Part shown: positions 14,194-26,556 of the stretch, in pieces
Layout of the letters: the number at the start of each line of letters is the position of its first letter
Numbering within the stretch: the stretch's first letter is position 1
Assembly: GCA_023426245.1 (NCBI GenBank)
Contig: JAFABB010000011.1
Span: 24,862-88,861, forward strand
DNA: 64,000 nucleotides
DNA from: Bacillota bacterium
Lineage (GTDB): Bacteria; Bacillota; UBA4882; UBA8346
Direction of reading: 5' to 3'
The notes under the pieces: model-generated
What the model was told of the DNA's origin: nothing
The model's input: only the letters and a program-made list of their open reading frames with translations
Database searches by the model: none
Made by a program: the position numbers and the translations under genes

Positions 14194-15945
14194 TCAAGCT
14201 CCTATCTTCCACCCCAGGCTTTCCTGTTGAATCGTATACAATTTGGCGTACAATCCCTGCTGGATCATCAATTCCTCATGGCTTCCCTGTTCTACCAAAG
14301 TGCCGTTGTTCAGCACCAGAATTTGATCGGCTCCGGCCACCGTCCGCAACCGGTGGGCAATGATTACCACAGTACGTCCTTTAACCAGATGGGAAAGAGC
14401 CTCCTGAATATAGACCTCATTTTCCGGATCCAGGGAAGCGGTGGCTTCATCCAGCAATACGATGGGGGCGTTTTTCAGAAGCGCCCGGGCGATGGAAATC
14501 CGTTGTCGTTCTCCTCCCGAAAGAGTACTGCCGTTTTCCCCAATCAGGGTTTGATATCCTTCCGGCATCCTGGTGATAAACTCATGGCAGCGGGCTAATT
14601 TCGCCGCACGGATCACTTCTTCTTCCGTGGCATCCTGTTTGCCCAGGCGGATGTTATTGTAGAGCGTGTCGTTAAAGAGAACTACATTCTGAAAAACAAT
14701 GGCTATATAGGATAAGAGCCGCTCCGGATCGATTTCCCGGATGTTGAGGCCGCCAATAGTCACGCTGCCCCGGTTGACATCCCAAAAACGGGCAATCAAT
14801 CTGGAAACCGTGCTTTTCCCGCTGCCCGACGGCCCCACCAGTGCAGTCACCTTGCCTTGGGGTATGGTAAAACTGACATCCCGCAATACCTCATCCTGAT
14901 TGTATTGAAACCCTACTTTTTCAAAAGCGATATCAAATTTTTTCAGAGCCGCCCCATCATTACCGTTCATGAGCGGTTGGGCCTGTAATGCCTTCATCCG
15001 GTTCACCGAGATGATACTGTAAAACATCTCGCCCAAAAGCGTCAAAATGGTAATCAAAGGATTGTAAATCTGGGCCGCCACAATCAAAAATATTGTGAAT
15101 TTAACCAAACCCAAGTCTCCTCCGGTAATCAAGTATACACCGGTAAAAATGGCTGCGCTTAGGCCGAATTTCAAGATGATCACGGCGCTCATGATGAATG
15201 AACCGACTACCGCCTCTAACCTGATACTTTGATGCATCAAATCTTTGAGTGCCTTGTCCAGGCTGACGAATTTGGCTCCGGAAAGTCCGAAGGCTTTAAT
15301 GACTTTGATACCCTCCAAATATTCCTGGGACTGCTCGGCAGAATTCAACTTGGCGGCAACCTGGCGCGCCCCTATCTTTTGTTGCACTCTTTTGGTCAAG
15401 AGCACAATCGCAAAAGCAACCGGCATGGTGCAAAAGATCGCCAAGGCCATCCGCCACTCATACAGCGCCATCATGATCGTAAAGAGGCAAACACTGATGA
15501 CGTTGCCCGCCAGTTGGGGCATTACGTGGGAATATGTGTGTTCAATGCCGCTGCAATCACCCATCATATTGGTGGTCAGTTCCGTCAGGTCCTTTTGATT
15601 AAAAAAACTTAACGGTAACCTTCGTAAATGTTCGGCGATGCTGATCCGTTTTTCGGCGGCGGTGGAATAAGCCGCTATATAGGTTTTATCATACTCATGG
15701 CGGTTGGCGACCACCATGACCGCAATCAGCAATAATCCAAGCCCGGCGTACAGCCATAGTTTTATAAAACTTACGGTCCCGCCGCTGAAGGGCTTCAAAA
15801 TTTCCATGATCACCATGGACATCACCGAAACCGGCAACAGGAAACTGAGATTGGACAAAACATTAGCCCAGACCGCCTTTTTAAAATCCCGGTATCCCTG
15901 ATCCGATAAAAACAAAAGTTCTTGAAAGGATATCTTCTTTGTCAT
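14194..15945 (-). CDS. ABC exporter, fused permease/ATPase (heterodimer partner 2)
   Basis: Six-TM domain, then Walker A GPSGSGKST, signature LSGGERQR and Walker B VLLDEATS. The ATG at 15945 overlaps the upstream stop as TAATG. The ORF track extends to 16005. Confidence 0.9.
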   Translation of the reverse strand: MTKKISFQELLFLSDQGYRDFKKAVWANVLSNLSFLLPVSVMSMVIMEILKPFSGGTVSFIKLWLYAGLGLLLIAVMVVANRHEYDKTYIAAYSTAAEKRISIAEHLRRLPLSFFNQKDLTELTTNMMGDCSGIEHTYSHVMPQLAGNVISVCLFTIMMALYEWRMALAIFCTMPVAFAIVLLTKRVQQKIGARQVAAKLNSAEQSQEYLEGIKVIKAFGLSGAKFVSLDKALKDLMHQSIRLEAVVGSFIMSAVIILKFGLSAAIFTGVYLITGGDLGLVKFTIFLIVAAQIYNPLITILTLLGEMFYSIISVNRMKALQAQPLMNGNDGAALKKFDIAFEKVGFQYNQDEVLRDVSFTIPQGKVTALVGPSGSGKSTVSRLIARFWDVNRGSVTIGGLNIREIDPERLLSYIAIVFQNVVLFNDTLYNNIRLGKQDATEEEVIRAAKLARCHEFITRMPEGYQTLIGENGSTLSGGERQRISIARALLKNAPIVLLDEATASLDPENEVYIQEALSHLVKGRTVVIIAHRLRTVAGADQILVLNNGTLVEQGSHEELMIQQGLYAKLYTIQQESLGWKIGA

Positions 15946-17759
15946 TAGGCTACCCCTCCTTCCCCACGGATCGACCAACTTAAGGTCTGGGTATAGGTGT
16001 CCCACAACCGGCGGTATTTGCCTTCCTCAGCCAATAATTGTCTGTGGGTCCCCTGCTGAATCAACCGTCCCTCATCCATTACCAGAATCTGATCGGCGTT
16101 CTGAATCGTAGAAAGCCGGTGAGCAATAATGATTACCGTTTTATCCTTGATCAACTCTTTCAGGGCCAATTGGATCAACTGTTCGTTTTCCGGATCGGCG
16201 AAGGCGGTCGCTTCATCCAGGACAATAACCGGGGCATTCTTTAAGATGGCCCGGGCAATGACGATCCGTTGCTGTTCCCCGCCGGAAAGGTGAACACCCT
16301 GGCTGCCGATGACCGTCCCATACTTATCCGGCAGTTTGATAATAAATTCATGGCACTGGGCTGCTCGGGCCGCCGCTATAATTTCCGCCGCGGTCGCCTC
16401 CGGTTTACCGATGCAAATATTATCCAGAATGCTTTGTTTAAAAAGAAACAGATCCTGAAAAACAAATCCCACTTTGGTGAGGAGATAATCCGGATCCATG
16501 GCTCGGATATCCACCCCGCCGATTTTGACAGCGCCTTCCCGGACATCCCAAAAACGGGGGATTAAGTGGGCGATGGTACTCTTCCCACTGCCGGAAGCTC
16601 CGACCAAAGCCGTAACCTCCCCTTGGCGAGCCTGAAAAGAAATATTTTTCAACGCTTCCACGTTGGTTTCTCCCAAAGTGTAGGAAAAGGAGACACCTTC
16701 AAAAAAAATTTCATTTCCGGCGGTTGTTAACGGATGAAGAGGTAGCGGCAACGGCTGCTCTGCAAAAATTTGTTCCAATCGTGCGACGCCGCTGCTTATC
16801 TGCCGGCCCGCCGATGTTACATACATTAGCTTCATAATCGGTCCCGGAAGCGCCGCCGAAAAGATCAAATAAAAAAGGAAGGAAAGAGCGAAGGATTGAT
16901 AATTATTGCTTTGACTGCCAAGAAAGATCCCCACCGGTATCAAAAACACCGCAATGGCGTTTAATATCACCACAAAAGCCACCCAGGAATTTTTCCAGGA
17001 AAAAGTATAGCGTAAGGCGATGTCCTTATACGCCATAATCGAATCATAAAAACGCCGGAAAGAAAAGACCGTCTGGTTAAAGACCTTGACCACTGAAATG
17101 CCGCGCACATATTCAACGGCCGAGTTGTTCATATCTTCCAGATGATTTTGAAAAGTTTCCATCATTTCCTTGGCTTTTTCTCCGGAAAACGCCTTGATCT
17201 GAATGAAAAATGCCGCCAGCAACGGTACCAGGCATGCCAAGCCCATCCGCCAATCAAATGCCAGCAGGATGATTAGCATCACTAGCGGCGCCGTCATGGC
17301 TCCGGCTAAATCCGGCAATTGATGGGCCAAAAAACCTTCGATTTTCTCGATGTTTTCATCCAGCATTTTACGGAGTTTTCCGGTGGAGTTGGCTGTATGA
17401 AACCCCAGGGGCAGTGAAGCCAGATGCTTGGTAAAGGCCAGTTTCAATCGATAAAGAATCTTAAAAGCAGCAATATGGGAGCAAATGGTGGAAGCATAGA
17501 GCAGTAAAAAGCTGGCTATCATTCCCAGCATGGCCCACCAGCCATAGCCGATAACCAGGATCCGGTTGGTCCGGGTCAAGTCCGCTGCATGCTTCAAAAG
17601 TTCTTGAATGATAAAATAAATGCACATAAAGGGGATAAATGAAGCCAGTGTGCTGAGCACCGCCAATATGCAAGACAGCACCAGTAGTCCCTTTTTCGCA
17701 CCGGCGATTTCCAACAGTCTGGTAATGCCGGTTTTTCGGTTGTTTGCGGTTTCCGCCAT
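15945..17759 (-). CDS. ABC exporter, fused permease/ATPase (heterodimer partner 1)
   Basis: Walker A GASGSGKST, signature LSGGEQQR, Walker B IVLDEATA. 604 aa. GGAGGAA lies upstream. Confidence 0.9.
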   Translation of the reverse strand: MAETANNRKTGITRLLEIAGAKKGLLVLSCILAVLSTLASFIPFMCIYFIIQELLKHAADLTRTNRILVIGYGWWAMLGMIASFLLLYASTICSHIAAFKILYRLKLAFTKHLASLPLGFHTANSTGKLRKMLDENIEKIEGFLAHQLPDLAGAMTAPLVMLIILLAFDWRMGLACLVPLLAAFFIQIKAFSGEKAKEMMETFQNHLEDMNNSAVEYVRGISVVKVFNQTVFSFRRFYDSIMAYKDIALRYTFSWKNSWVAFVVILNAIAVFLIPVGIFLGSQSNNYQSFALSFLFYLIFSAALPGPIMKLMYVTSAGRQISSGVARLEQIFAEQPLPLPLHPLTTAGNEIFFEGVSFSYTLGETNVEALKNISFQARQGEVTALVGASGSGKSTIAHLIPRFWDVREGAVKIGGVDIRAMDPDYLLTKVGFVFQDLFLFKQSILDNICIGKPEATAAEIIAAARAAQCHEFIIKLPDKYGTVIGSQGVHLSGGEQQRIVIARAILKNAPVIVLDEATAFADPENEQLIQLALKELIKDKTVIIIAHRLSTIQNADQILVMDEGRLIQQGTHRQLLAEEGKYRRLWDTYTQTLSWSIRGEGGVA

Positions 17760-17855: not shown

Positions 17856-17871
17856 GTTAGGAAAGACTAAC
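17856..17871. promoter_or_regulatory. GTTAG-N6-CTAAC palindrome, copy 1 (upstream of ABC exporter pair)
   Basis: gttag gaaaga ctaac, 97 nt upstream of the start at 17759 and downstream of a tataat on the minus strand. Confidence 0.55.
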
Positions 17872-18135
17872 ACAGGCACTGTTATCTCTCCCTTGTTCCC
17901 GCTAGAATTATTATAAAATGGAGGCCGGAGGCTTTTCTACCCCGAACCGGACTATCCGTATCCCAAATGGTATTTTCGCAAAAGCTGATCGATATTCTAG
18001 GGAAAATGACGGTTATTAATAGCAAAAAGCCTGTCAGACCAATTCTTCAACGGTTTGACAAGCTTTTTTACTCCAACCACGATAACGAAAGCCGCATTAA
18101 CACGCAGAGACGAAATCCCCTTAAGAGAACATTTC

Positions 18136-19128
18136 TTAGCCGCGGAGATATTCTCCCGGATTCAAACCGTATTTTTTACGGAACGCTTCTCCGAAGTGAC
18201 TGATATTGGTATATCCTACTTGACTGGCTACATCTTTCACTTTCAACTTTTTTTCCTCCAAAAGAATCCGGGCTAATTCCATCCGTTTTTCCACAATATA
18301 AGCATAAACTGGCATTCCATAACTTTCTTTAAAACCTTTCTTTAACTTTAGCTCATTAAGGCATACCAAGCGGGCCAATTGGGTTAAGGTGGGCGGATCG
18401 GCATAGTTGAGATCGAGAATTTCCTTGGCCCTACGCAGACTCACCGCTTCTTCCGGCGAAAATTTCATCTTGAGCGGTTCCGTGCGCCCGGAGCCAACGA
18501 TTTCTTGAACATAGAGGGCTATTAATTCCAGCACTTTCCCTTCAATATAAATCCCCCTGGCTCTCTCCTGATAAGAGCAATTCACGATCTGCTCCAAAAT
18601 CCTTTTTGCCAACGCCGTGATTTTAAACTTCTTGCCTATAACCAGCGGACTTTCCAAACGGGTGATCGCCTGCACTGAGTGTAGATATTCAAAAATAGCC
18701 GCAAATCGTCCGGGATGAAGCGTCAATGTTATCCCATAGCAGTGCTCTCCGGGGATAAAGGTATGAAATCCGTCGATGAATTTTCCCCGGTAAACGCAAC
18801 TATCATCCCGCTCCAAAGCCAATAATTGGCCGGACCCCCGGATAGTGTACTCCATATCATCCGCCAAATTGAATGTAATATGGCAGGCATTGGCGTAGGT
18901 GGTCTCTTCCAGGGTAAATTCCTTCTGAAAACAAAAGTCATAAATATTGACTTCCAACTCCGGACTCAGGATGATCCGCTGGCAATAGCCTTCGCCCAAG
19001 GCTTGGGGCAACCGATAGAGACTCTCGGAGAAATCCCGGCTATATATCTTATTCAGTCCTTCCACCAAGCAGAAATCCGTTCCGGGCCGTGAATCTGTCT
19101 TATATGTCTTTTGCAACATGACATTCAT
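18136..19128 (-). CDS. AraC-family transcriptional regulator
   Basis: C-terminal double HTH (...LTQLARLVCLNELKLKKGFK..YG...Y......M..A..LL......V..VA..VGY.N.SHF..AF.K.YG..P..Y). 330 aa. Confidence 0.85.
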   Translation of the reverse strand: MNVMLQKTYKTDSRPGTDFCLVEGLNKIYSRDFSESLYRLPQALGEGYCQRIILSPELEVNIYDFCFQKEFTLEETTYANACHITFNLADDMEYTIRGSGQLLALERDDSCVYRGKFIDGFHTFIPGEHCYGITLTLHPGRFAAIFEYLHSVQAITRLESPLVIGKKFKITALAKRILEQIVNCSYQERARGIYIEGKVLELIALYVQEIVGSGRTEPLKMKFSPEEAVSLRRAKEILDLNYADPPTLTQLARLVCLNELKLKKGFKESYGMPVYAYIVEKRMELARILLEEKKLKVKDVASQVGYTNISHFGEAFRKKYGLNPGEYLRG

Positions 19129-19173
19129 TGCGGTTATCCTCTTCTATCATTACTTTATCACCCTCGATTCGCT

Positions 19174-19611
19174 TCATCCAAGGGCTTGAACTAACTTAGC
19201 CCCCAGTTTTTTGGACTCTGCCATTCCTTCCTCATCCGGCGTACCTTGAACCGTTAATCCATCCGCCACCATCTTCGCTCCCGAAGCTTCCATACGTTCC
19301 TGCCATTCTCTCATCCACTGACCGTCGCCCCAATCGAAAGAACCAAACAAAGCTAACGGTTTTCCCTGTAAGTTTTCAGTTAATAAAGATTCAACAAAAG
19401 GTTCCATTTCCGATTCTTCTAAAATCTCGTTTCCCATGGCAGGGCAACCCAAGGCGATGCCGTCCGCTTTCAAAACATCTTCCTTAACAGCGGCATCAAC
19501 AGTTGTCATTTTTACCTCGATATCATCGGCTTTGGCTCCTTCAGCAATCCCTACCGCCATTTTCTGCGTATTCCCCGTTCCGCTCCAATAAACAATCATA
19601 ATGTTTTTCAT
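19174..19611 (-). CDS. Short-chain flavodoxin
   Basis: MKNIMIVYWSGTGNTQKMA FMN-phosphate loop. 145 aa, acidic. Confidence 0.9.
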   Translation of the reverse strand: MKNIMIVYWSGTGNTQKMAVGIAEGAKADDIEVKMTTVDAAVKEDVLKADGIALGCPAMGNEILEESEMEPFVESLLTENLQGKPLALFGSFDWGDGQWMREWQERMEASGAKMVADGLTVQGTPDEEGMAESKKLGAKLVQALG

Positions 19612-19628
19612 TTTGACATTCCCCCATT

Positions 19629-20285
19629 TTAAAAAATTTTTTTCTGTTCAACCGGCTTACGTATCATGATCCATAAACCTTCCTTACTATAATTGATTTC
19701 ATAATAGCCGATATCTGCTTCATCAAGTTTCTTTTTTAAACTGGCGATGCTTTTCCGCCAAACGTCTTTGGCCATCAATTTAGGGTCGACTGCATTAATT
19801 ATTTCCTCGATGGTTTTGGAAGCCGGACCATTCCAAAAACCTCCCCCGATATACGCTACCCCGCTTGAAGCCAGCACCCGATAAATTTCTTGAAATGATT
19901 GTACCTGGTTTTGCTGAAAAAACACCGAACTTCGGCTAATGACCAAATCCATGCTCAGACTGGGAAATTGTAATTCATAGGTGCTGCCTTTGATTAAATG
20001 AAGCTGATTTTGATTAGCGCTTTTGGCAATATTTTTCCGGGCTTGGCTTAATGCCTCTTGAGAATTCTCCAACAGATATAGTTGTAAATCGCTAATTTGT
20101 GCCAAGGCCAAACCAAGCAAACCGCTACCCGCAGAAACAATCAAGCATTTTCCATCATGGATCCCTGTTTTATGTAGAATTTGTTCAGCCATATTCAAAT
20201 AAGTGGGATAGACCCATTTCTGATCCAGTTGTTTCAATGAGAGACGAACACTCAGAACCATCACTCCTTTCCAGGCAATCTTCAT
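19629..20285 (-). CDS. SAM-dependent methyltransferase-like protein
   Basis: Motif I-like LIVSAGSGLLGLALA, and post-I/II motifs (DLVISRSS, LASSGVAYIGGG). The start is uncertain because several in-frame Met codons exist. Confidence 0.65.
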   Translation of the reverse strand: MKIAWKGVMVLSVRLSLKQLDQKWVYPTYLNMAEQILHKTGIHDGKCLIVSAGSGLLGLALAQISDLQLYLLENSQEALSQARKNIAKSANQNQLHLIKGSTYELQFPSLSMDLVISRSSVFFQQNQVQSFQEIYRVLASSGVAYIGGGFWNGPASKTIEEIINAVDPKLMAKDVWRKSIASLKKKLDEADIGYYEINYSKEGLWIMIRKPVEQKKIF

Positions 20286-20351
20286 AAGCGGCGAACTCCA
20301 TTCCTCACTCCTTTTTTCTAAGGAGAAGCGACTGCATAATGAAGATAATGC

Positions 20352-20975
20352 TTATTGAATGATTGCTAATACCGAAACCGGTTTTATTCCTGCAAATATC
20401 GAAAATTGGTTTTCTTCCATTATTCTTATTAATTGAGGATCAAACTGTAAATCCCGGTTGATTTGTAATTGATGCCGGCACTCCTTAACACTTAATGCCT
20501 TTCGATATGGCCTTTCAGAAGTCATCGCGTCTACAGCATCACATACGGCAATAATTCGAGAACTTATTGGAATTTCTTCCCCTTTGATTCCATCGGGATA
20601 ACCATTTCCATCCCAGCGCTCATGATGATGTAAAACAATTTTCGCCAAACCTTTTAGTTGGCTTGAACGGGTCAAGATTTGGTACCCTATCGTTGGATGC
20701 TGCCTTAATATTGCAAGCTCTTCCGGCATCAATGGTCCAGCTTTATTTAAAACCCGGTCCGGAATGCCGATTTTTCCGATATCATGAAGATGAGCTGCTA
20801 AATGTAAATCTTCCAAAGCCTCCCCCTTCAATCCGGCGATCTCTCCTAGCTTGTAAGCCATGTCCGCAACCCTGGTCGAATGACCTCTGGTATAGGGGTC
20901 TTTCGCTTCCAAGGCCGTTACCAGACATTCAATAATTTCATGATAAACTTCAGCCATTAGCCACCAAGTATTCAT
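20352..20975 (-). CDS. HD-GYP domain protein (putative c-di-GMP phosphodiesterase)
   Basis: HLHDIGKIGIP and HHERWDGNGYP motifs. There is a 4-nt ATGA overlap with the upstream gene. Confidence 0.85.
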   Translation of the reverse strand: MNTWWLMAEVYHEIIECLVTALEAKDPYTRGHSTRVADMAYKLGEIAGLKGEALEDLHLAAHLHDIGKIGIPDRVLNKAGPLMPEELAILRQHPTIGYQILTRSSQLKGLAKIVLHHHERWDGNGYPDGIKGEEIPISSRIIAVCDAVDAMTSERPYRKALSVKECRHQLQINRDLQFDPQLIRIMEENQFSIFAGIKPVSVLAIIQ

Positions 20976-21274
20976 AAGCGGCTCCTCATCGTCTCATCTT
21001 TCATAGAAATCAAAACCTCTCGCAGTTGCGAACAAGAACGTTTCACAAATACCACTTTCAGCCCCCTTCGTTTGGCAGCGGCTTTCACTCCTAAAGCCAA
21101 CCGGTGATTGAGAAAATCCGTAAAAACAATGACCCCTTCGGCTTTTCGGTGAATCACCGTTTTCATGTCACCCATTTTGCGACCGGTTATATGATCAAGC
21201 AGATCAAATCCATGTTCTTCCAACAACTGCGGAATATTTCCTAAACGATCGCCTCCAAAAATAACAATGGACAT
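20972..21274 (-). CDS. DUF2325-like small protein
   Basis: 100 aa. The IVIFGGDRLGN...VIVFTDFLNH...K..AK pattern was recalled from the DUF2325 family. Translationally coupled to the HD-GYP gene. Confidence 0.55.
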   Translation of the reverse strand: MSIVIFGGDRLGNIPQLLEEHGFDLLDHITGRKMGDMKTVIHRKAEGVIVFTDFLNHRLALGVKAAAKRRGLKVVFVKRSCSQLREVLISMKDETMRSRL

Positions 21275-21287
21275 TTGTCACCTTCCC

Positions 21288-21926
21288 TTACTCCGTACAG
21301 ATTATTAATTTATCCGTGAAATAATCCCCCGGTCGTTTCCCTTCCATCATCATGTGAAGAAAACAACGCTTAGCTTCATGATAACGCTCAAATAGGGCCA
21401 GTTTGGGACCAGGATCATGATAGACTTTCCAATATCCGTCGATTAGTGCCTTTTTCCCTTTATTATCGATGAAGCTTAATACATCCGGCAATGGAATTCC
21501 CAGAAAAACTCCTATTTCATGAGGACATCCCCCAGAAAACCGCTCTTTTAAATCTGCCAAAGCCGTCTCTAAAGTTAGTTCCTCTCGGTAACCGCAACGG
21601 ATTAAAAATTGGTTGGTTGGCTTTTCCTGTAAAACATTTTGAAGCAAATCAGGGTTATAAAAAAGCACTATACTCTGTTCTGGAGTCCGTCGCAATTCAT
21701 AAAAGCGAAAATTTACCGAACAAGGAATTTCATCATGGTGATTTGTCCAAATCTCATTCAGCCGTCGTCCGATTTCACTGCCAAAGTTTAAAGTCACGGC
21801 TGGTTTATGCGCTTCCAATACCGGCGCAGAGTAATAAGCAATTAAATATAAAAGGTAATCCAGGGACTGATAATTCCCGGCGAATTGGTTATGTAAAAAA
21901 TTCATCGTTTTCATATCCTGTTTCAT
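21288..21926 (-). CDS. DUF3793-like protein
   Basis: 212 aa. The HKPAVTLNF and CPHEIGVFLG.P..DV motifs were recalled from DUF3793, which is often near flavodoxin genes in Clostridia. Confidence 0.55.
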   Translation of the reverse strand: MKQDMKTMNFLHNQFAGNYQSLDYLLYLIAYYSAPVLEAHKPAVTLNFGSEIGRRLNEIWTNHHDEIPCSVNFRFYELRRTPEQSIVLFYNPDLLQNVLQEKPTNQFLIRCGYREELTLETALADLKERFSGGCPHEIGVFLGIPLPDVLSFIDNKGKKALIDGYWKVYHDPGPKLALFERYHEAKRCFLHMMMEGKRPGDYFTDKLIICTE

Positions 21927-21948
21927 GAGTTTTCGTTTCCATTCTTAA

Positions 21949-21964
21949 GTTAGTTCAGACTAAC
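21949..21964. promoter_or_regulatory. GTTAG-N6-CTAAC palindrome, copy 2 (upstream of DUF3793-to-flavodoxin operon)
   Basis: gttag ttcaga ctaac, 23 nt upstream of the start at 21926. Confidence 0.55.
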
Positions 21965-22133
21965 TTTTTGTCGCTAAAAAACCTTGCCTAAACTTAATGT
22001 CCCGATGGATAACTTTTTCCCTAGAAGCTTGTTTTTACCAATGAGCCCATTGTATTCTTTCGAGCTATCCGTATTCACCTAAAACGGTGTAAACCAATTT
22101 TCTTCCGAACGAAATCATACGGATTCCGTCTTC

Positions 22134-22274
22134 TTATTCTTTCTTTCCACAGCACGATCCGGAACAACCATCTTCACAACCACAATTGCTCTCGCCCTTG
22201 GCTGCCCGTTTCACATTCCAAACGATTACAACCGCGAAAACCACAACGACACCAATTAAAATCAAATACCGCAT
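22134..22274 (-). CDS. FeoB-associated Cys-rich membrane peptide (46 aa, below the ORF-track cutoff)
   Basis: My translation is MRYLILIGVVVVFAVVIVWNVKRAAKGESNCGCEDGCSGSCCGKKE, one TM helix plus a Cys-rich tail. GAAAGGAGAAAGGG lies upstream of the ATG. It sits at the end of the feo cluster. Confidence 0.75.
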   Translation of the reverse strand: MRYLILIGVVVVFAVVIVWNVKRAAKGESNCGCEDGCSGSCCGKKE

Positions 22275-22304
22275 ATCCCTTTCTCCTTTCATTTTTTTAC
22301 TTTT

Positions 22305-22736
22305 CTATGGTAGGTAACACCCTTTACAAGTACCGTAAACACCAACTTCTTCAACGGAAAATGCGTTTCGTTCCTGAATTTGGTCAATCCATTCCGTAGC
22401 TTGCAAATATTCTTCAACGAAACCGCATTTCCGGCAGATTAACAAACATTTTTTGACTCCTCCTATTTGTAGCCGATAACGCTTACGCTCATCATTAGGT
22501 GAAATCGCGGAAATCAAGTGTAATTTCTCAAGCAAAGATAATGTCCGGTATATTGTGGCGATTCCCAGATGATGATTTTTTCTTTTCACCCGATCATAAA
22601 TAGCTTCACAGTCAAGATATTGTTTGGAGTTTTGGAACAATATTTCTAATATGATCTGTCTTTGACCTGTCAAACGATATCCTGCTTGATTCAGTGTTTT
22701 CATAGCAATAGGCAATAATTTGTTCATTTTCTCCAT
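22305..22736 (-). CDS. Fur-family metalloregulator
   Basis: Winged helix (R.T.QR..ILE.L.......A..IY........IG.ATIYR.L) and two CxxC pairs (CRKCG, CKGC). 143 aa. An alternative start is at 22727. Confidence 0.85.
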   Translation of the reverse strand: MEKMNKLLPIAMKTLNQAGYRLTGQRQIILEILFQNSKQYLDCEAIYDRVKRKNHHLGIATIYRTLSLLEKLHLISAISPNDERKRYRLQIGGVKKCLLICRKCGFVEEYLQATEWIDQIQERNAFSVEEVGVYGTCKGCYLP

Positions 22737-22780
22737 GCAATTTCATTAGTTCATTAAATTCTCCTGAAATCTTTTGGAAC

Positions 22781-22808
22781 CGCGTTGGGAAAGACACATC
22801 CCAACGCG
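22781..22808. other. GC-rich hairpin between feoB and the fur-like gene
   Basis: cgcgttggga-aagacaca-tcccaacgcg, a 10-bp perfect stem. The T-run is only partial, so it may be an attenuator, a processing site or a weak terminator. Confidence 0.45.
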
Positions 22809-22837
22809 TTCCGTTTCCATTTTTTATTGTTTTCTAC

Positions 22838-25186
22838 TCAGGCAGATAACCGGTGCTGGTCATTTCCGTCCAATACGCCCTTTTTCCCTTTACCAAGCCA
22901 CCAGAAAAATGCAACCATAAGGACTAGTAAAGCTAATGAAACTGCAATCCAAACCATTTGATGTCCCAATGTAATTTGATAAAACAGTGTTGAAGTTACC
23001 CAGGCCACTACAGTCAAATATCCCATAGCAAGCCAGCCATAACCTTTGCCGATTTCCCGTATGACCGCCCCCAAAGCGGCTACACAAGGCATGTAAAGCA
23101 GGATAAACAGCAGATACGCATACGCCTGAAGCGGTCCTTTGGTAAAATAATGTTGCATCATACTATAAACCCGCTGATCGGCGCCAACTTCCTCGGCCAC
23201 TGCTTTCTCGTCCCCACTGACTACGCCCAGGCCCAAGGGATCCCGCAAACTATCCCAGATTCCGCTTAAAGCGTCAGGTATCGACGCAAAGGCCTCCTTA
23301 ACCCCGCCCCACAAGTCAAAACCCTGATCCTCTTCAGCGGCATCCCCTTCTGGCGCGGTTGCCGAATCAATCTGGCCATACAGAGAATTAAGAGTTCCTA
23401 CCACTGCCTCTTTAGCAAAAAGTCCGGTAAAAAGCCCCACCGTTGCCGGCCAATTCTCCCGCTCCACCCCCATCGGCTCAAAGACCGGTGTAATCGCCCT
23501 TCCGATTTGGGCTAACACCGAATCAGGAGAGTCTTCATTGCCAAAAGTTCCATTGGTTCCGAATGAATTCAAAAATGCCAATATGGTAACCACAATAATA
23601 ATGACTTTGGTACGGAACATAAATACTTTCAAACGGCTCCAAGTATAAGAGATAATATTCTTAAAGCGCGGTGCATGATAAGGCGGCAGTTCCATCACAA
23701 AATGGGAGCGTTCCCCTTTAAAAAGCGTATTTTTGAGCAACAAGCCTGTCAAAACCGCCATTAAAATTCCGACCAAGTATAGAGAAAACACCATATTAGA
23801 GGCTCCTGCTCCGAAAAACGCGGCCCCAAATAAAGCATAAACCGGCAAGCGGGCTCCGCAAGACATAAAGGGAATCATAAATACGGTCAAATAACGGTCC
23901 CTTTTGTTTTCTAACGTCCGTGTGCCCATAATAGCCGGTACACCACAACCCAATCCAACTAACATCGGAACAAAAGCCTTACCCGGCAGCCCAATCCACC
24001 GCAAAAACCTGTCCATTACAAAAGCGGCTCTGGCCATATACCCTGAATCTTCTAAAATGGATAAAGCCAAGAACATCATGAAAATAACCGGGATAAAAGT
24101 TGCCAATGTCTGAACACCGGCGCCGACACCTCCGGCCAGGATCGTAATAAGCCATTCCGGTGTGTGGATCACGGATAACAATTTGCCAAAACCATCCACA
24201 AATACCGTTCCAAATAAAATATCAAAAAAGTCGATAAAGGAACCCCCGACATTCATCGTAACCCAGAACATTAAATATAACACGGCCAAGAAAATAGGAA
24301 TTCCCAGCAATCTATGCATCACAATTTTATCGATTTTATCACTGGCAGTCTCCCGGAATATGCCGCGTTGTACTATATTTTCCGTAAAGCTGCGGATCAT
24401 CTTGTAGCGGCAATCAGCCATAATCACATCGGTATTCTCGCCCAACTCGGCTTCAAGTTTGCTGAGAGTCGTTCGGATCTCCGTTTCCGAGATGGCGCCG
24501 GATGAAATCACCTTTTCAGTAACCCAAGGATCTTGTTCTAATAATTTCACAGCAGCCCACCGCTGATTGGTGCCTAATGTTTTTTCGGATCCTTGCAATT
24601 GGGGACTCCAGGCGGTAATAACCTTTTCCATTTCCAACGGATATTGAGGAAGTTTCTGAGAAACAACTCCTTCCCGCCAAGCTTTTCCGATAGCATCCTT
24701 CACCTTATGAAGCTCTTTTTTGAGAGTGGCGCTTGAACCTACAACCGGACAACCTAGTTTTGTCGCCAGTTGCGGTAAATCGATTTGGATTCCTTTCTCT
24801 TCGGCCAGGTCCATCATATTAACGACCGCCAGGACCGGCACGCCCATTTCTAAAAGCTGGGTAGTTAGATACAAATTCCGCTCCAGATTGGTAGCATCCA
24901 AAATATTGATTACCAGCCCAGGTTCACCGCTTAATATGTAATCCCGGGCCACCCGTTCATCTTCGGAATGCGCTGTCAAAGAATAAATACCGGGCAAATC
25001 CACCAAGGTAATTTTTTGCCCTGCAACTGAAATGAGGCCTTCTTTTTTCTCCACCGTGACTCCCGGCCAGTTTCCAACCCGTTGGTTGCTTCCGGTAAGG
25101 CCGTTAAAAAGGGTTGTTTTCCCACAGTTAGGATTTCCCACTACGGCAATTGTGCGGCTGCCCGTGCGTACGCTCGCTTCTTTCAT
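22838..25186 (-). CDS. feoB: Ferrous iron transporter FeoB
   Basis: N-terminal G domain GNPNCGKTTLFN, DLPG and NMMD, followed by a polytopic gate-motif membrane domain. 782 aa. TAATG overlap with feoA. Confidence 0.95.
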   Translation of the reverse strand: MKEASVRTGSRTIAVVGNPNCGKTTLFNGLTGSNQRVGNWPGVTVEKKEGLISVAGQKITLVDLPGIYSLTAHSEDERVARDYILSGEPGLVINILDATNLERNLYLTTQLLEMGVPVLAVVNMMDLAEEKGIQIDLPQLATKLGCPVVGSSATLKKELHKVKDAIGKAWREGVVSQKLPQYPLEMEKVITAWSPQLQGSEKTLGTNQRWAAVKLLEQDPWVTEKVISSGAISETEIRTTLSKLEAELGENTDVIMADCRYKMIRSFTENIVQRGIFRETASDKIDKIVMHRLLGIPIFLAVLYLMFWVTMNVGGSFIDFFDILFGTVFVDGFGKLLSVIHTPEWLITILAGGVGAGVQTLATFIPVIFMMFLALSILEDSGYMARAAFVMDRFLRWIGLPGKAFVPMLVGLGCGVPAIMGTRTLENKRDRYLTVFMIPFMSCGARLPVYALFGAAFFGAGASNMVFSLYLVGILMAVLTGLLLKNTLFKGERSHFVMELPPYHAPRFKNIISYTWSRLKVFMFRTKVIIIVVTILAFLNSFGTNGTFGNEDSPDSVLAQIGRAITPVFEPMGVERENWPATVGLFTGLFAKEAVVGTLNSLYGQIDSATAPEGDAAEEDQGFDLWGGVKEAFASIPDALSGIWDSLRDPLGLGVVSGDEKAVAEEVGADQRVYSMMQHYFTKGPLQAYAYLLFILLYMPCVAALGAVIREIGKGYGWLAMGYLTVVAWVTSTLFYQITLGHQMVWIAVSLALLVLMVAFFWWLGKGKKGVLDGNDQHRLSA

Positions 25187-25440
25187 TAACTTTTCCTCCT
25201 TATCTGCAATACATCAGCCTCGGTTTTGCGGAGCGAAAGATTATAATCCCGAACCATGACCTCAACGGGATCTCCCAAGGGGGCCACTTTAATCAGTTTA
25301 ACCTCAATACCCTTGGTAAGCCCCATCGCTAATAGTTTATTTCGATAAACAGGGTCGCTGCTTTCGTAACCGACAATTTCCCCAATTTCACCTGGTTTTA
25401 AATCTCTCAACCGGCTATTTTCTTTTAACTGCTCACTCAC
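25186..25440 (-). CDS. feoA: FeoA-family protein
   Basis: 84 aa SH3-like FeoA (L..L..G..G.I......D.....KLLAMGL.KG..V......PLGDPVEV). GTG start with GGAGGA 7 nt upstream. Confidence 0.9.
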   Translation of the reverse strand: MSEQLKENSRLRDLKPGEIGEIVGYESSDPVYRNKLLAMGLTKGIEVKLIKVAPLGDPVEVMVRDYNLSLRKTEADVLQIRRKS

Positions 25441-25453
25441 AATAAATTCCTCC

Positions 25454-25771
25454 TTATTTTGGACTCAAGTCGGACAAGATATATATCCGGCTTAAAAGAT
25501 TCCAGTCGACCATTACCCGGCTTTCATCAATCCGTAAAATAAAAGGTTGATGTTTACCACCCCTGGCGACCATAACGGTTTTACCGGGGAGGATACCCAA
25601 AGCCAACATTTTACTGCGAAATTCTTCATCACCAGTCATGCGGGATACCACCCCGCTCTCCCCTGCCCGCAATATGGCAAGAGGTTTTTCAATCTGATGG
25701 CTTAGCGTATCGGTAGCCGCTGAGTACCGGGGCAAAACGGGGTTATTTTCAGTCTTCAACACCATTTCCAT
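25454..25771 (-). CDS. feoA: FeoA-family protein (second copy, start re-called)
   Basis: The FeoA domain is in the C-terminal 75 aa. The ORF track opens at 25876, but the ATG at 25771 has GAAGGAG 11 nt upstream. A GTTAG-N6-CTAAC site lies inside the putative 5-prime extension. Confidence 0.8.
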   Translation of the reverse strand: MEMVLKTENNPVLPRYSAATDTLSHQIEKPLAILRAGESGVVSRMTGDEEFRSKMLALGILPGKTVMVARGGKHQPFILRIDESRVMVDWNLLSRIYILSDLSPK

Positions 25772-25795
25772 TCGGGATTCATCTCCTTCAACTTT

Positions 25796-25811
25796 GTTAG
25801 TCCCAACTAAC
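25796..25811. promoter_or_regulatory. GTTAG-N6-CTAAC palindrome, copy 3
   Basis: gttag tcccaa ctaac, 25 nt upstream of the re-called feoA start. Confidence 0.55.
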
Positions 25812-25858
25812 TGTAAAACAAAATTATCTGCTGCCCTTTCCCATCCGGATATCCAGAT

Positions 25859-25874
25859 GTTAGTTTGCCCTAAC
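25859..25874. promoter_or_regulatory. GTTAG-N6-CTAAC palindrome, copy 4
   Basis: gttag tttgcc ctaac, upstream of the feo operon. Confidence 0.55.
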
Positions 25875-25897
25875 ATCTGGATAAATTAAATTCTTTA

Positions 25898-25913
25898 GTT
25901 AGTCTGACCTAAC
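25898..25913. promoter_or_regulatory. GTTAG-N6-CTAAC palindrome, copy 5
   Basis: gttag tctgac ctaac, between the DtxR-like gene stop and feoA. Confidence 0.55.
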
Positions 25914-25969
25914 AATGAAACAAAAATTTAAGTCTTGATGTCGGAAAGATTTTTTTCAGCACTGAATGG

Positions 25970-26392
25970 TTACTTTCGATTACCCGGGCAGTCCATCGGA
26001 CAACCTGACTGAATCAAGCCGGCCAGATACTTCACTAATTTTTCCATGGTAACCGGACTGATATAATGCTCAATGCCGCATGCGTCTTTCTCTGCAATTT
26101 GGGGATCCACGCCTAAAGTTTCACTGAAAAACCGTGTCAAAATCCGGTGCCTTTCCCGGACTTTACGCGCTTTATCCTCCCCTAACTCTGTTAATTCCAA
26201 CGGTCCATACCGTTCATGGGTCAAAAGTTGCAATTCCACCAGCTTGACTACAGCTTGGTTTACGCTAGACTTGGCTACCTGCAACTTTTCCGCCAAATCG
26301 GTCACCCGGATGGACTCGTTTTCCTCTTTCAAATCCAGAATGACTTCCAAATAGTCTTCCAGGGAAGGTGAAAGAGAGGTGGTTTCATCCAT
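25970..26392 (-). CDS. DtxR/MntR-family metal-dependent regulator with Cys-rich C-terminal tail
   Basis: LEDYLEVILDL.......RV.DLA..L.V...SV...V..L and RHR.L..F....LGV.... are typical of the DtxR N-terminal and dimerisation domains. The tail is SGCPMDCPG. The ORF opens at a TTG at 26410; an ATG (MDETT) is at 26392. Confidence 0.85.
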   Translation of the reverse strand: MDETTSLSPSLEDYLEVILDLKEENESIRVTDLAEKLQVAKSSVNQAVVKLVELQLLTHERYGPLELTELGEDKARKVRERHRILTRFFSETLGVDPQIAEKDACGIEHYISPVTMEKLVKYLAGLIQSGCPMDCPGNRK

Positions 26393-26411
26393 TCCATCAC
26401 CATATTTCAAT

Positions 26412-26427
26412 GTTAGGTCAAACTAAC
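26412..26427. promoter_or_regulatory. GTTAG-N6-CTAAC palindrome, copy 6 (immediately upstream of the DtxR-like gene)
   Basis: gttag gtcaaa ctaac, in an autoregulatory position. Confidence 0.55.
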
Positions 26428-26556
26428 TTCAAATCTACTTTACCGAAAAATGTTATCATTGTCAAGCAAATTTTTGATTTTTTAACCTTCTGTTTATATA
26501 ATTTTACGAGACCTGTATGAGACTCTGAATTTTTTTAAAATCCTTTTCTATATATT

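Follow-up and report, generated by a model that had tools for sequence, protein, structure and literature searches.

Putative one-dimer operators of a two-domain DtxR/MntR-family regulator at iron-acquisition genes of an uncultured Bacillota lineage

The iron regulators DtxR of Corynebacterium diphtheriae and IdeR of Mycobacterium bind a 19-bp box (TTAGGTTAGSCTAACCTAA) that is occupied by two dimers. Within the IdeR/DtxR box, each protein subunit binds one of four CCTAA pentamers, and one dimer takes repeats 1 and 3, which are 4 bp apart. A single IdeR dimer thus reads TTAGG-N4-SCTAA, and the half site is bound as one dimer with an apparent dissociation constant of ~78 nM (PMC8464063). This half site, described for IdeR of Saccharopolyspora erythraea (PMC8464063; PMC10317159), an Fe2+-responsive repressor of iron genes, is defined in a review of IdeR as a 10-bp palindrome whose halves are 4 bp apart; which other species have it, and what it does, are listed there as open (PMC10317159). 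A related box is used by the archaeal regulator TroR of Haloferax volcanii, a DtxR-family protein and the primary iron regulator of that species, for which chromatin immunoprecipitation sequencing gave the motif TTTAGGC-NNN-CCTAAA. Tandem copies of the TroR motif, ~30 bp apart, are located at siderophore/iron ABC transporter promoters, which are repressed when iron is sufficient (PMC10783522). Here, we analyzed the palindrome GTTAG-N6-CTAAC in a 64,000-nt stretch of the genome of a Bacillota bacterium (hereafter the window; C45:24862-88861 of a 6.6-Mb, 60-contig assembly), together with a gene for a 140-aa DtxR-like protein that lies among the copies. In our assessment, the palindrome is probably (probability of roughly 0.85) the operator of this protein, which would act as an iron-responsive repressor of the DtxR/MntR family.

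The palindrome is present in the window in six exact copies, where 0.03 would be expected, and none of 100 dinucleotide-preserving shuffles reached this number. Copies with one or two mismatches occur at chance level (18 versus 14.5 expected), so the exact class is sharply bounded. The six coordinates given in the initial annotation of the sequence (17856, 21949, 25796, 25859, 25898 and 26412) proved to be exact, and our gene calls likewise place every copy 5′ of a minus-strand transcription unit. That annotation, from a scan by eye, had also reported no copies inside confidently called genes. Two of them (25796 and 25859) overlap a listed 140-aa FeoA open reading frame (ORF), but this ORF is over-extended: the likely start of feoA1 is an in-frame ATG at position 25771, preceded by GAAGGAG, and with this start all six copies are intergenic. 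With the flanks included, the consensus of the sites is W-W-G-TTAG-(T>G)-N4-(A>C)-CTAA-C-W-W.

In the complete genome, 15 exact copies are found at a spacing of six; the other spacings from 0 to 12 give between 0 and 4 each. All 15 are intergenic and are located 5′ of nine transcription units next to iron-acquisition genes: the feoAAB operon, the dtxR-like gene, a flavodoxin operon, a pair of ABC transporter genes, an FTR1/P19 system, a TonB-dependent receptor operon, a siderophore synthesis operon, a FecCD importer operon and a ZIP transporter gene. A metal-responsive regulon had been proposed from the window alone, with a genome scan named as the test that could refute it. The scan favors such a regulon, specifically one for iron; its extent was misjudged, as the sites are not a feature of 9 kb and are distributed genome-wide. 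A weight-matrix scan showed a sharp boundary, with the 15 exact copies followed by 34 one-mismatch copies, from which ~1 exact copy would be expected by chance in the genome. An enlargement of the regulon by a tail of weaker sites was rejected, because 28 of the 34 one-mismatch copies are in coding sequence, close to the background rate (crude coding fraction 83%).

All 15 sites read TTAG(T/G/C)-N4-(A/C/G)CTAA, that is, as two inverted CCTAA-type pentamers with a 4-bp spacing. The palindrome had first been described as an operator with a non-canonical 5-6-5 arrangement. This misreading of the spacing arose because GTTAG/CTAAC was compared with the center of the 19-bp IdeR/DtxR box, with which the sites have this half-site core in common. 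Read as TTAG(G/T)-N4-(C/A)CTAA, the sites share their one-dimer geometry with the IdeR half site and the TroR box. They differ from the IdeR half site in that the first base of the pentamer is A or C and in that an extra invariant G/C flanks each half. With TroR, they share the 5-4-5 geometry and the use of tandem copies; the distances between the copies, however, are 38–39 and 61–65 bp here. The 19-bp two-dimer box was not found genome-wide: the best matches to TTAGGTTAGSCTAACCTAA, six in number, differ from it at four positions, and three of them are one-dimer sites out of register. The full two-dimer IdeR box was therefore rejected as a description of the sites. In S. erythraea, the half site is an exception to the 19-bp box that IdeR, a three-domain protein with an SH3-like domain, normally uses, whereas the regulator considered here has two domains and is associated with the one-dimer form only. 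The operator form is already known, and what is particular to this genome, as far as can be judged from its sequence, is that no other form appears to be used. From the geometry, we infer that each site is bound by one dimer, in contrast to the two dimers per 19-bp box of DtxR and IdeR.

The tandem sites are spaced by 63 and 39 bp in front of the feo operon (25796-25913) and by 61, 65 and 63 bp in the leader of the TonB-dependent receptor operon (C31:13501-13705). Across the relatives described below, 7 of 24 adjacent site pairs are 61–65 bp apart, which corresponds to about six helical turns. Helical phasing of the tandem sites is suggested by a Rayleigh p of ~0.013, obtained with 24 partly orthologous pairs, and is not claimed here.

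Sixty-one related genomes were scanned for the motif, the DtxR-like and Fur-like proteins of the window and the second DtxR paralog of the genome. The number of motif copies follows the presence of the DtxR-like orthologue, with a Spearman coefficient of 0.70 (p = 3e-10, shared ancestry being ignored in this and the other correlations). The genomes with the orthologue (n = 18) contain a median of 9.5 sites (range 1–28), and those without it (n = 43) a median of 0 (range 0–4). The association is also observed inside the window's own family (p = 7e-6). In ~16 genomes from more than 10 genera, one site is located 14–60 nt 5′ of the regulator orthologue, and one to three further sites are present in the gap to the next gene. 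At these conserved regulator and feo sites, the N6 spacer differs between genomes and the arms are invariant. Conservation in relatives had been suggested as a check in the initial annotation, and by this measure the self-regulatory and feo sites are kept across more than 10 genera. A site that matches the position in front of the DUF3793/flavodoxin operon (~3.3–3.9 kb downstream of the dtxR orthologue) was identified in seven relatives. Exact sites also accompany homologues of 46–61% identity in Tepidanaerobacteraceae, Desulfosporosinus, Syntrophomonas wolfei, Gelria and several metagenome-assembled genomes of Clostridia.

The association with iron genes extends to other genera. A tally of 61 proteins encoded 3′ of sites in representatives of three of them (designated G010, G012 and G018) contained TonB-dependent receptors (6), FecCD permeases (6), ABC ATPases (8), periplasmic binding proteins (3), enterochelin esterases (2), ExbB, ExbD and TonB (2, 1 and 2, respectively), a DUF3793 protein (1), a ZIP transporter (1) and AraC-type regulators (5). 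It also contained five ABC exporter membrane domains, in proteins of the ABC_membrane plus ABC_tran type, one of which is encoded 3′ of a site in G012. Five proteins encoded 3′ of operators in the same three genomes (loci L131-L150) carry a nitrogenase component 1-type oxidoreductase domain (PF00148).

The DtxR-like protein comprises an N-terminal winged-helix DNA-binding domain (PF01325, residues 7–63; 52.5 bits versus a cutoff of 26) and a helical dimerization and metal-binding domain (PF02742, residues 68–124; 66.4 bits versus a cutoff of 27). The chain ends at residue 140, after the dimerization domain, and a third, SH3-like domain is absent; a FeoA/SH3-like C-terminal domain is present in some distant homologues and is missing from the window's clade. 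The nearest sequence is Bacillus MntR (E = 1e-15), followed by IdeR (~1e-11) and DtxR (~1e-9). MntR of Bacillus subtilis (PDB 1ON1) is the closest protein with a solved structure, and the two-domain layout of ~140 aa is common to both. The curated NCBIfam models were matched below their cutoffs (DtxR NF053665, 40.4 bits versus 290; MntR NF008273, 102 versus 153, and NF003025, 87 versus 138).

The putative metal-ligand set of the protein is complete (D13/E16/H82/C105/E108/H109), and its recognition helix reads AKSSVNQ. Five ligands of MntR (Asp8, Glu11, His77, Glu102 and His103) are retained, and the sixth, Glu99, is replaced by Cys105, which corresponds to Cys102 of DtxR; the all-oxygen/His binuclear site of MntR is thus not preserved. 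The Lys of the MntR recognition helix is replaced by Gln, at the position of Gln43 of IdeR. The primary site of IdeR/DtxR (Met10, Cys102, Glu105 and His106) is present in part, with Cys105, Glu108 and His109 conserved and the position of Met10 occupied by the MntR-type Asp13. The protein therefore resembles DtxR/IdeR in the Cys-x-x-Glu-His motif of the primary site, the Gln of the helix and the siderophore and iron transport genes among its proposed targets, and differs from them in that no SH3-like domain is present, in the change of Met10 to Asp and in the residues of the ancillary site, which are not conserved. The difference from MntR also extends to the targets: instead of the manganese-transporter genes of an MntR-type regulon, they are feo, TonB-dependent receptor, siderophore synthesis, FecCD, FTR1/P19 and flavodoxin genes.

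The D-E-H-C-E-H ligand pattern occurs in 77 of 80 homologue loci. In the same 80 loci, which are phylogenetically non-independent, the exact motif is found with 19 of the 29 proteins that have the helix Gln and with 7 of the 51 that lack it (Fisher p = 4e-6). Six of these seven belong to one group with an AKST(V/A)TI helix, so that helices of the types AK..V..Q and AKST(V/A)TI go with the exact motif and other types almost never do. These features suggest an uncharacterized DtxR/MntR subfamily of two-domain proteins whose metal site is an Asp/Cys hybrid and which would govern iron uptake. The literature searched contained no account of this class of regulator in Firmicutes. The hybrid site, in which the ligands of MntR are combined with a Glu99-to-Cys replacement, bears on the question of Mn/Fe selectivity among DtxR/MntR-family regulators. 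The C-terminal CPMDCPG tail, pointed out earlier as unusual, is real and is confined to this genus. In the form GCP(M/L/V)DCPGNRK (window 25970-26005), it is limited to this genome and the three relatives nearest to it; one of the tail cysteines is kept in a more distant UBA8346 relative, and other orthologues end earlier or differently.

The promoter layout is in line with a repressor. The dtxR-like gene is preceded by a predicted promoter, TTGACA-17-TAAAGT, and the operator begins 9 nt after the −10 hexamer. A TTGACA/TTGACT/TTGATT-17-TAnAnT promoter lies 4–13 nt before the operator at 12 of the 13 loci inspected, which represent several genera. This conserved register implies that the operator covers the transcription start, which is the usual place for a repressor to bind, and hence that the dtxR-like gene is putatively under negative self-regulation. 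In the switch that we propose, an Fe2+-loaded dimer would bind each site, and its two subunits would each read an (A/C)CTAA pentamer; the pentamers are in inverted orientation with 4 bp between them. The sites would overlap the promoters or sit just 3′ of them, and binding would block expression of the iron-acquisition genes as well as that of the gene for the repressor itself. Under iron scarcity, the protein would leave the DNA and the regulon would be expressed. Iron is proposed as the signal because of the nature of the targets, including flavodoxin, an iron-free stand-in for ferredoxin, and because of the thiolate ligand. A second paralog encoded on another contig (C2:22416-22844) probably shares the operator.

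Several observations weigh against this assignment. The regulator is overall closer in sequence to the manganese sensor MntR than to IdeR and scores under every curated NCBIfam cutoff, so the metal that it would sense is deduced from the targets and from one Cys. Two of the five DtxR-family paralogs of the genome share the helix type, and the choice of this paralog is therefore based on co-occurrence with the motif, for which the correlations take no account of shared ancestry. In G010, which has 28 sites, none is located beside the regulator orthologue on the short contig available. Finally, consensus scans gave no convincing promoter hexamers at units other than the dtxR-like gene.

The alternative that retains the most weight, although we consider it unlikely, is that the true or main binder is another of the five DtxR-family paralogs, either the Gln-helix paralog on contig C2 or one of the three others. 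The C2 paralog shares the ligand set, has a TKASVSQ helix and is encoded directly upstream of the two sites before the FTR1 operon. Its ~50%-identical orthologues (family f2) occur in genomes that each contain one motif copy a few kilobases away. However, the three closest relatives contain 10–21 sites and no orthologue of the C2 paralog, which argues that the window's protein suffices there. As for the others, two combine MntR-type ligands (E-x-x-E-H) with a helix Arg, and in the fifth the ligands are lost. The DtxR-like protein of the window, named as the prime candidate binder in the initial annotation, thus remains the best candidate, supported by its co-occurrence with the motif.

The paralogs have some further features. 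The C2 gene, which lacks an operator of its own, lies 72 nt 3′ of the gene for a three-HMA-domain P-type ATPase and is followed by the two operators (C2:22413-25508). A one-mismatch copy of the palindrome (GTTAGCATAAACTAAA at C35:73803) is located 66 nt 5′ of the gene for one MntR-type paralog (C35:73869-74213; E-x-x-E-H ligands and helix Arg), and could reflect cross-regulation or be a related operator of this paralog itself. In the fifth paralog (C35:314621-315729), the sequence DILKISY takes the place of DACGIEH and the ligands are lost; its gene adjoins another Fur-family gene.

Binding of the motif by an unrelated transcription factor, with the dtxR-like gene merely one of its targets, is more improbable still, given that the ligand set of the DtxR-like protein is intact, that the motif fits DtxR-type pentamers and their spacing, and that the presence of the orthologue predicts that of the motif.

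The Fur-like protein encoded at the end of the feo operon had been put forward as the alternative binder, a role that now appears highly improbable. It is a Fur-family protein encoded within the regulon, and weaker Fur-like homologues are found near the dtxR orthologue in four genomes (G008, G011, G021 and G025). Its presence, however, is not significantly correlated with motif count across the relatives (Spearman 0.21). Close orthologues are limited to the three nearest genomes and are missing from the motif-rich G010 (28 sites) and from G012, G018, G024, G009, G014, G015 and G022. The His-rich sensing site is lost: in comparison with Fur 9IRE, the HHH motif is changed to KKC with a two-residue deletion, two His are replaced by Tyr, and only the Cys4 zinc site (two CxxC pairs) is kept, which is accompanied by a score of 85 bits against the 220-bit Fur cutoff. 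In addition, the half-sites are DtxR-type sequences, and no credible Fur box (7-1-7, TGATAATNATTATCA) was detected in the nine regulatory regions, where the sole matches were two with three mismatches. The Fur-like protein was rejected as the binder on the basis of the co-occurrence data, the lost sensing residues and the absent Fur boxes. As a target of the DtxR-type regulon, it may form the second tier of a cascade or be a non-classical sensor.

The genome encodes at least four Fur-family paralogs. One of them is a canonical Fur (HHDH; C35:107003-107443), with near-consensus Fur boxes before its own gene (107456) and before an adjacent second feoB (106970; region C35:104826-107470). A canonical Fur with boxes of its own implies that two iron-sensing systems coexist in this organism, and the regulon of the canonical Fur is apparently small.

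The reading of the palindromes as RNA hairpins in 5′ leaders (attenuators or processing sites) has hardly any probability left. In its favor, most sites are located 19–126 nt 5′ of start codons and so are probably transcribed; 16% of sites, against 2.7% in a shifted-position control, are palindromic for at least 3 bp past the core; and feo site 2 as RNA would fold with −16.7 kcal/mol. Against it, the 16-mers alone fold weakly (−1.8 to −3.6 kcal/mol), and the arms keep one sequence across genera and show no covariation, with differences in the loop. Conservation of the long arms of feo site 2 does not reach past the nearest relatives, no T-run follows the hairpins, and the sites match a known protein operator in half-site sequence and spacing and co-occur with a specific regulator. 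Weak core stems, invariant arms and missing T-runs were the grounds for its rejection. The idea of a T-run or hairpin that ends regularly 8–12 nt 5′ of the operator was likewise not adopted: on inspection by eye, T-runs precede some of the 15 sites and not others, in DNA that is AT-rich. The long arms belong to a 34-bp palindrome (25850-25883) that encloses feo operator 2, with 14-bp arms (ATCCAGATGTTAG...CTAACATCTGGAT plus one further pair). It is kept in one close relative, is represented by 4 extra bp with other flank bases in another and is nearly lost in a third.

The DtxR-like protein, acting as an iron-dependent repressor, would be a metal switch of an ordinary type, in a group of bacteria for which such a switch is undescribed in the literature searched. 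Most of the iron uptake of an uncultured lineage appears to be under the control of a small DtxR/MntR-type protein; the lineage is a group of low-GC Bacillota represented by metagenome-assembled genomes only, in which TonB-dependent receptors are part of the same regulon. Since one-dimer half sites seem to be used exclusively, this lineage could provide a natural system for the questions listed as open in the IdeR review (PMC10317159). On the practical side, the motif is a cheap annotation aid for iron regulons in metagenome-assembled genomes and guards against misnaming of the regulators as MntR. More tentatively, and with the odds against it, the two-domain subfamily with the D-E-H-C-E-H pattern might be a principal Fe2+ sensor in many anaerobic Bacillota and also outside this phylum, acting through one-dimer half sites only, which would sometimes form arrays with distances of 61–65 bp and so allow repression to be cooperative. 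A minor role (itself and the second feoB) would then be left to canonical Fur, and the Fur-like protein without a sensing site would be a member of the regulon. If this were true, a single Glu-to-Cys change in an MntR-type site would constitute a natural switch from Mn to Fe sensing.

The features of the window and the remaining units of the genome that are preceded by exact sites are listed in Table 1. The Pfam gene calls for the window concur with those of the initial annotation.

Table 1. Operators, promoter and genes of the window (window positions) and other units preceded by exact sites
Feature	Position	Strand	Remarks
Self-regulatory operator (putative)	26412..26427		19 nt 5′ of the dtxR-like start codon; exact match
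feo operator 1, distal (putative)	25898..25913		126 nt 5′ of feoA1; kept in relatives within the dtxR-feoA gap
feo operator 2 (putative)	25859..25874		87 nt 5′ of feoA1; palindrome reaches 9 bp further on each side (25850-25883)
feo operator 3, proximal (putative)	25796..25811		24 nt 5′ of the feoA1 ATG at 25771
Putative operator of the DUF3793/flavodoxin operon	21949..21964		22 nt 5′ of the DUF3793 gene; exact match
Putative operator of the ABC exporter-type pair	17856..17871		96 nt 5′ of the pair; exact match
Sigma-70-type promoter of the dtxR-like gene (predicted)	26437..26465	-	−35 26460-26465, −10 26437-26442; 10/12 consensus match
Two-domain DtxR/MntR-family regulator, 140 aa	25970..26392	-	Pfam PF01325 + PF02742
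feo operon	22134..25771	-	Pfam FeoA, FeoB_N/Gate/FeoB_C, FUR
feoA1	25454-25771	-	
feoA2	25186-25440	-	
feoB	22838-25186	-	
Fur-like gene, end of feo operon	22305-22736	-	
Small Cys-rich membrane peptide, feo operon	22134-22292	-	From translation
DUF3793/DUF2325/HD_5 (HD-GYP-type)/methyltransferase/flavodoxin operon	19174..21926	-	Pfam
AraC-family regulator after the flavodoxin operon	18136-19128		
Two half-size ABC transporters, type-I exporter fold	14194..17759 (15945-17759 + 14194-16005)	-	NCBIfam MsbA-like matches, all under equivalog cutoffs
FTR1/P19/FtrD/FtsX system			Directly 3′ of the second DtxR-family gene; sites 187 and 301 nt from the start codon
ZIP transporter			Site 22 nt from the start codon
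TonB-dependent receptor-ExbB-ExbD-TonB-FecCD operon			Four sites, 101, 162, 227 and 290 nt from the start codon
EntA-like/DAHP synthase/isochorismate synthase/EntE-like/EntB-like operon			Catecholate siderophore synthesis; site 35 nt from the start codon
FecCD-FecCD-ATPase-TonB-ExbB operon			Importer; site 59 nt from the start codon

Two minor observations concern individual units. The HD_5 (HD-GYP-type) protein of the window (20352-20975, minus strand) is encoded in the flavodoxin operon together with the methyltransferase, DUF3793 and DUF2325 proteins, and this combination hints at a link of iron limitation to cyclic-nucleotide signaling. In the TonB-dependent receptor operon, a 9-codon ORF (MIVLYNKIF) with a strong GAAGGAGG ribosome-binding site is located between the last operator and the start codon of the receptor gene (C31:13399-13500), and it is possible that it encodes a leader peptide or that it arose by chance.

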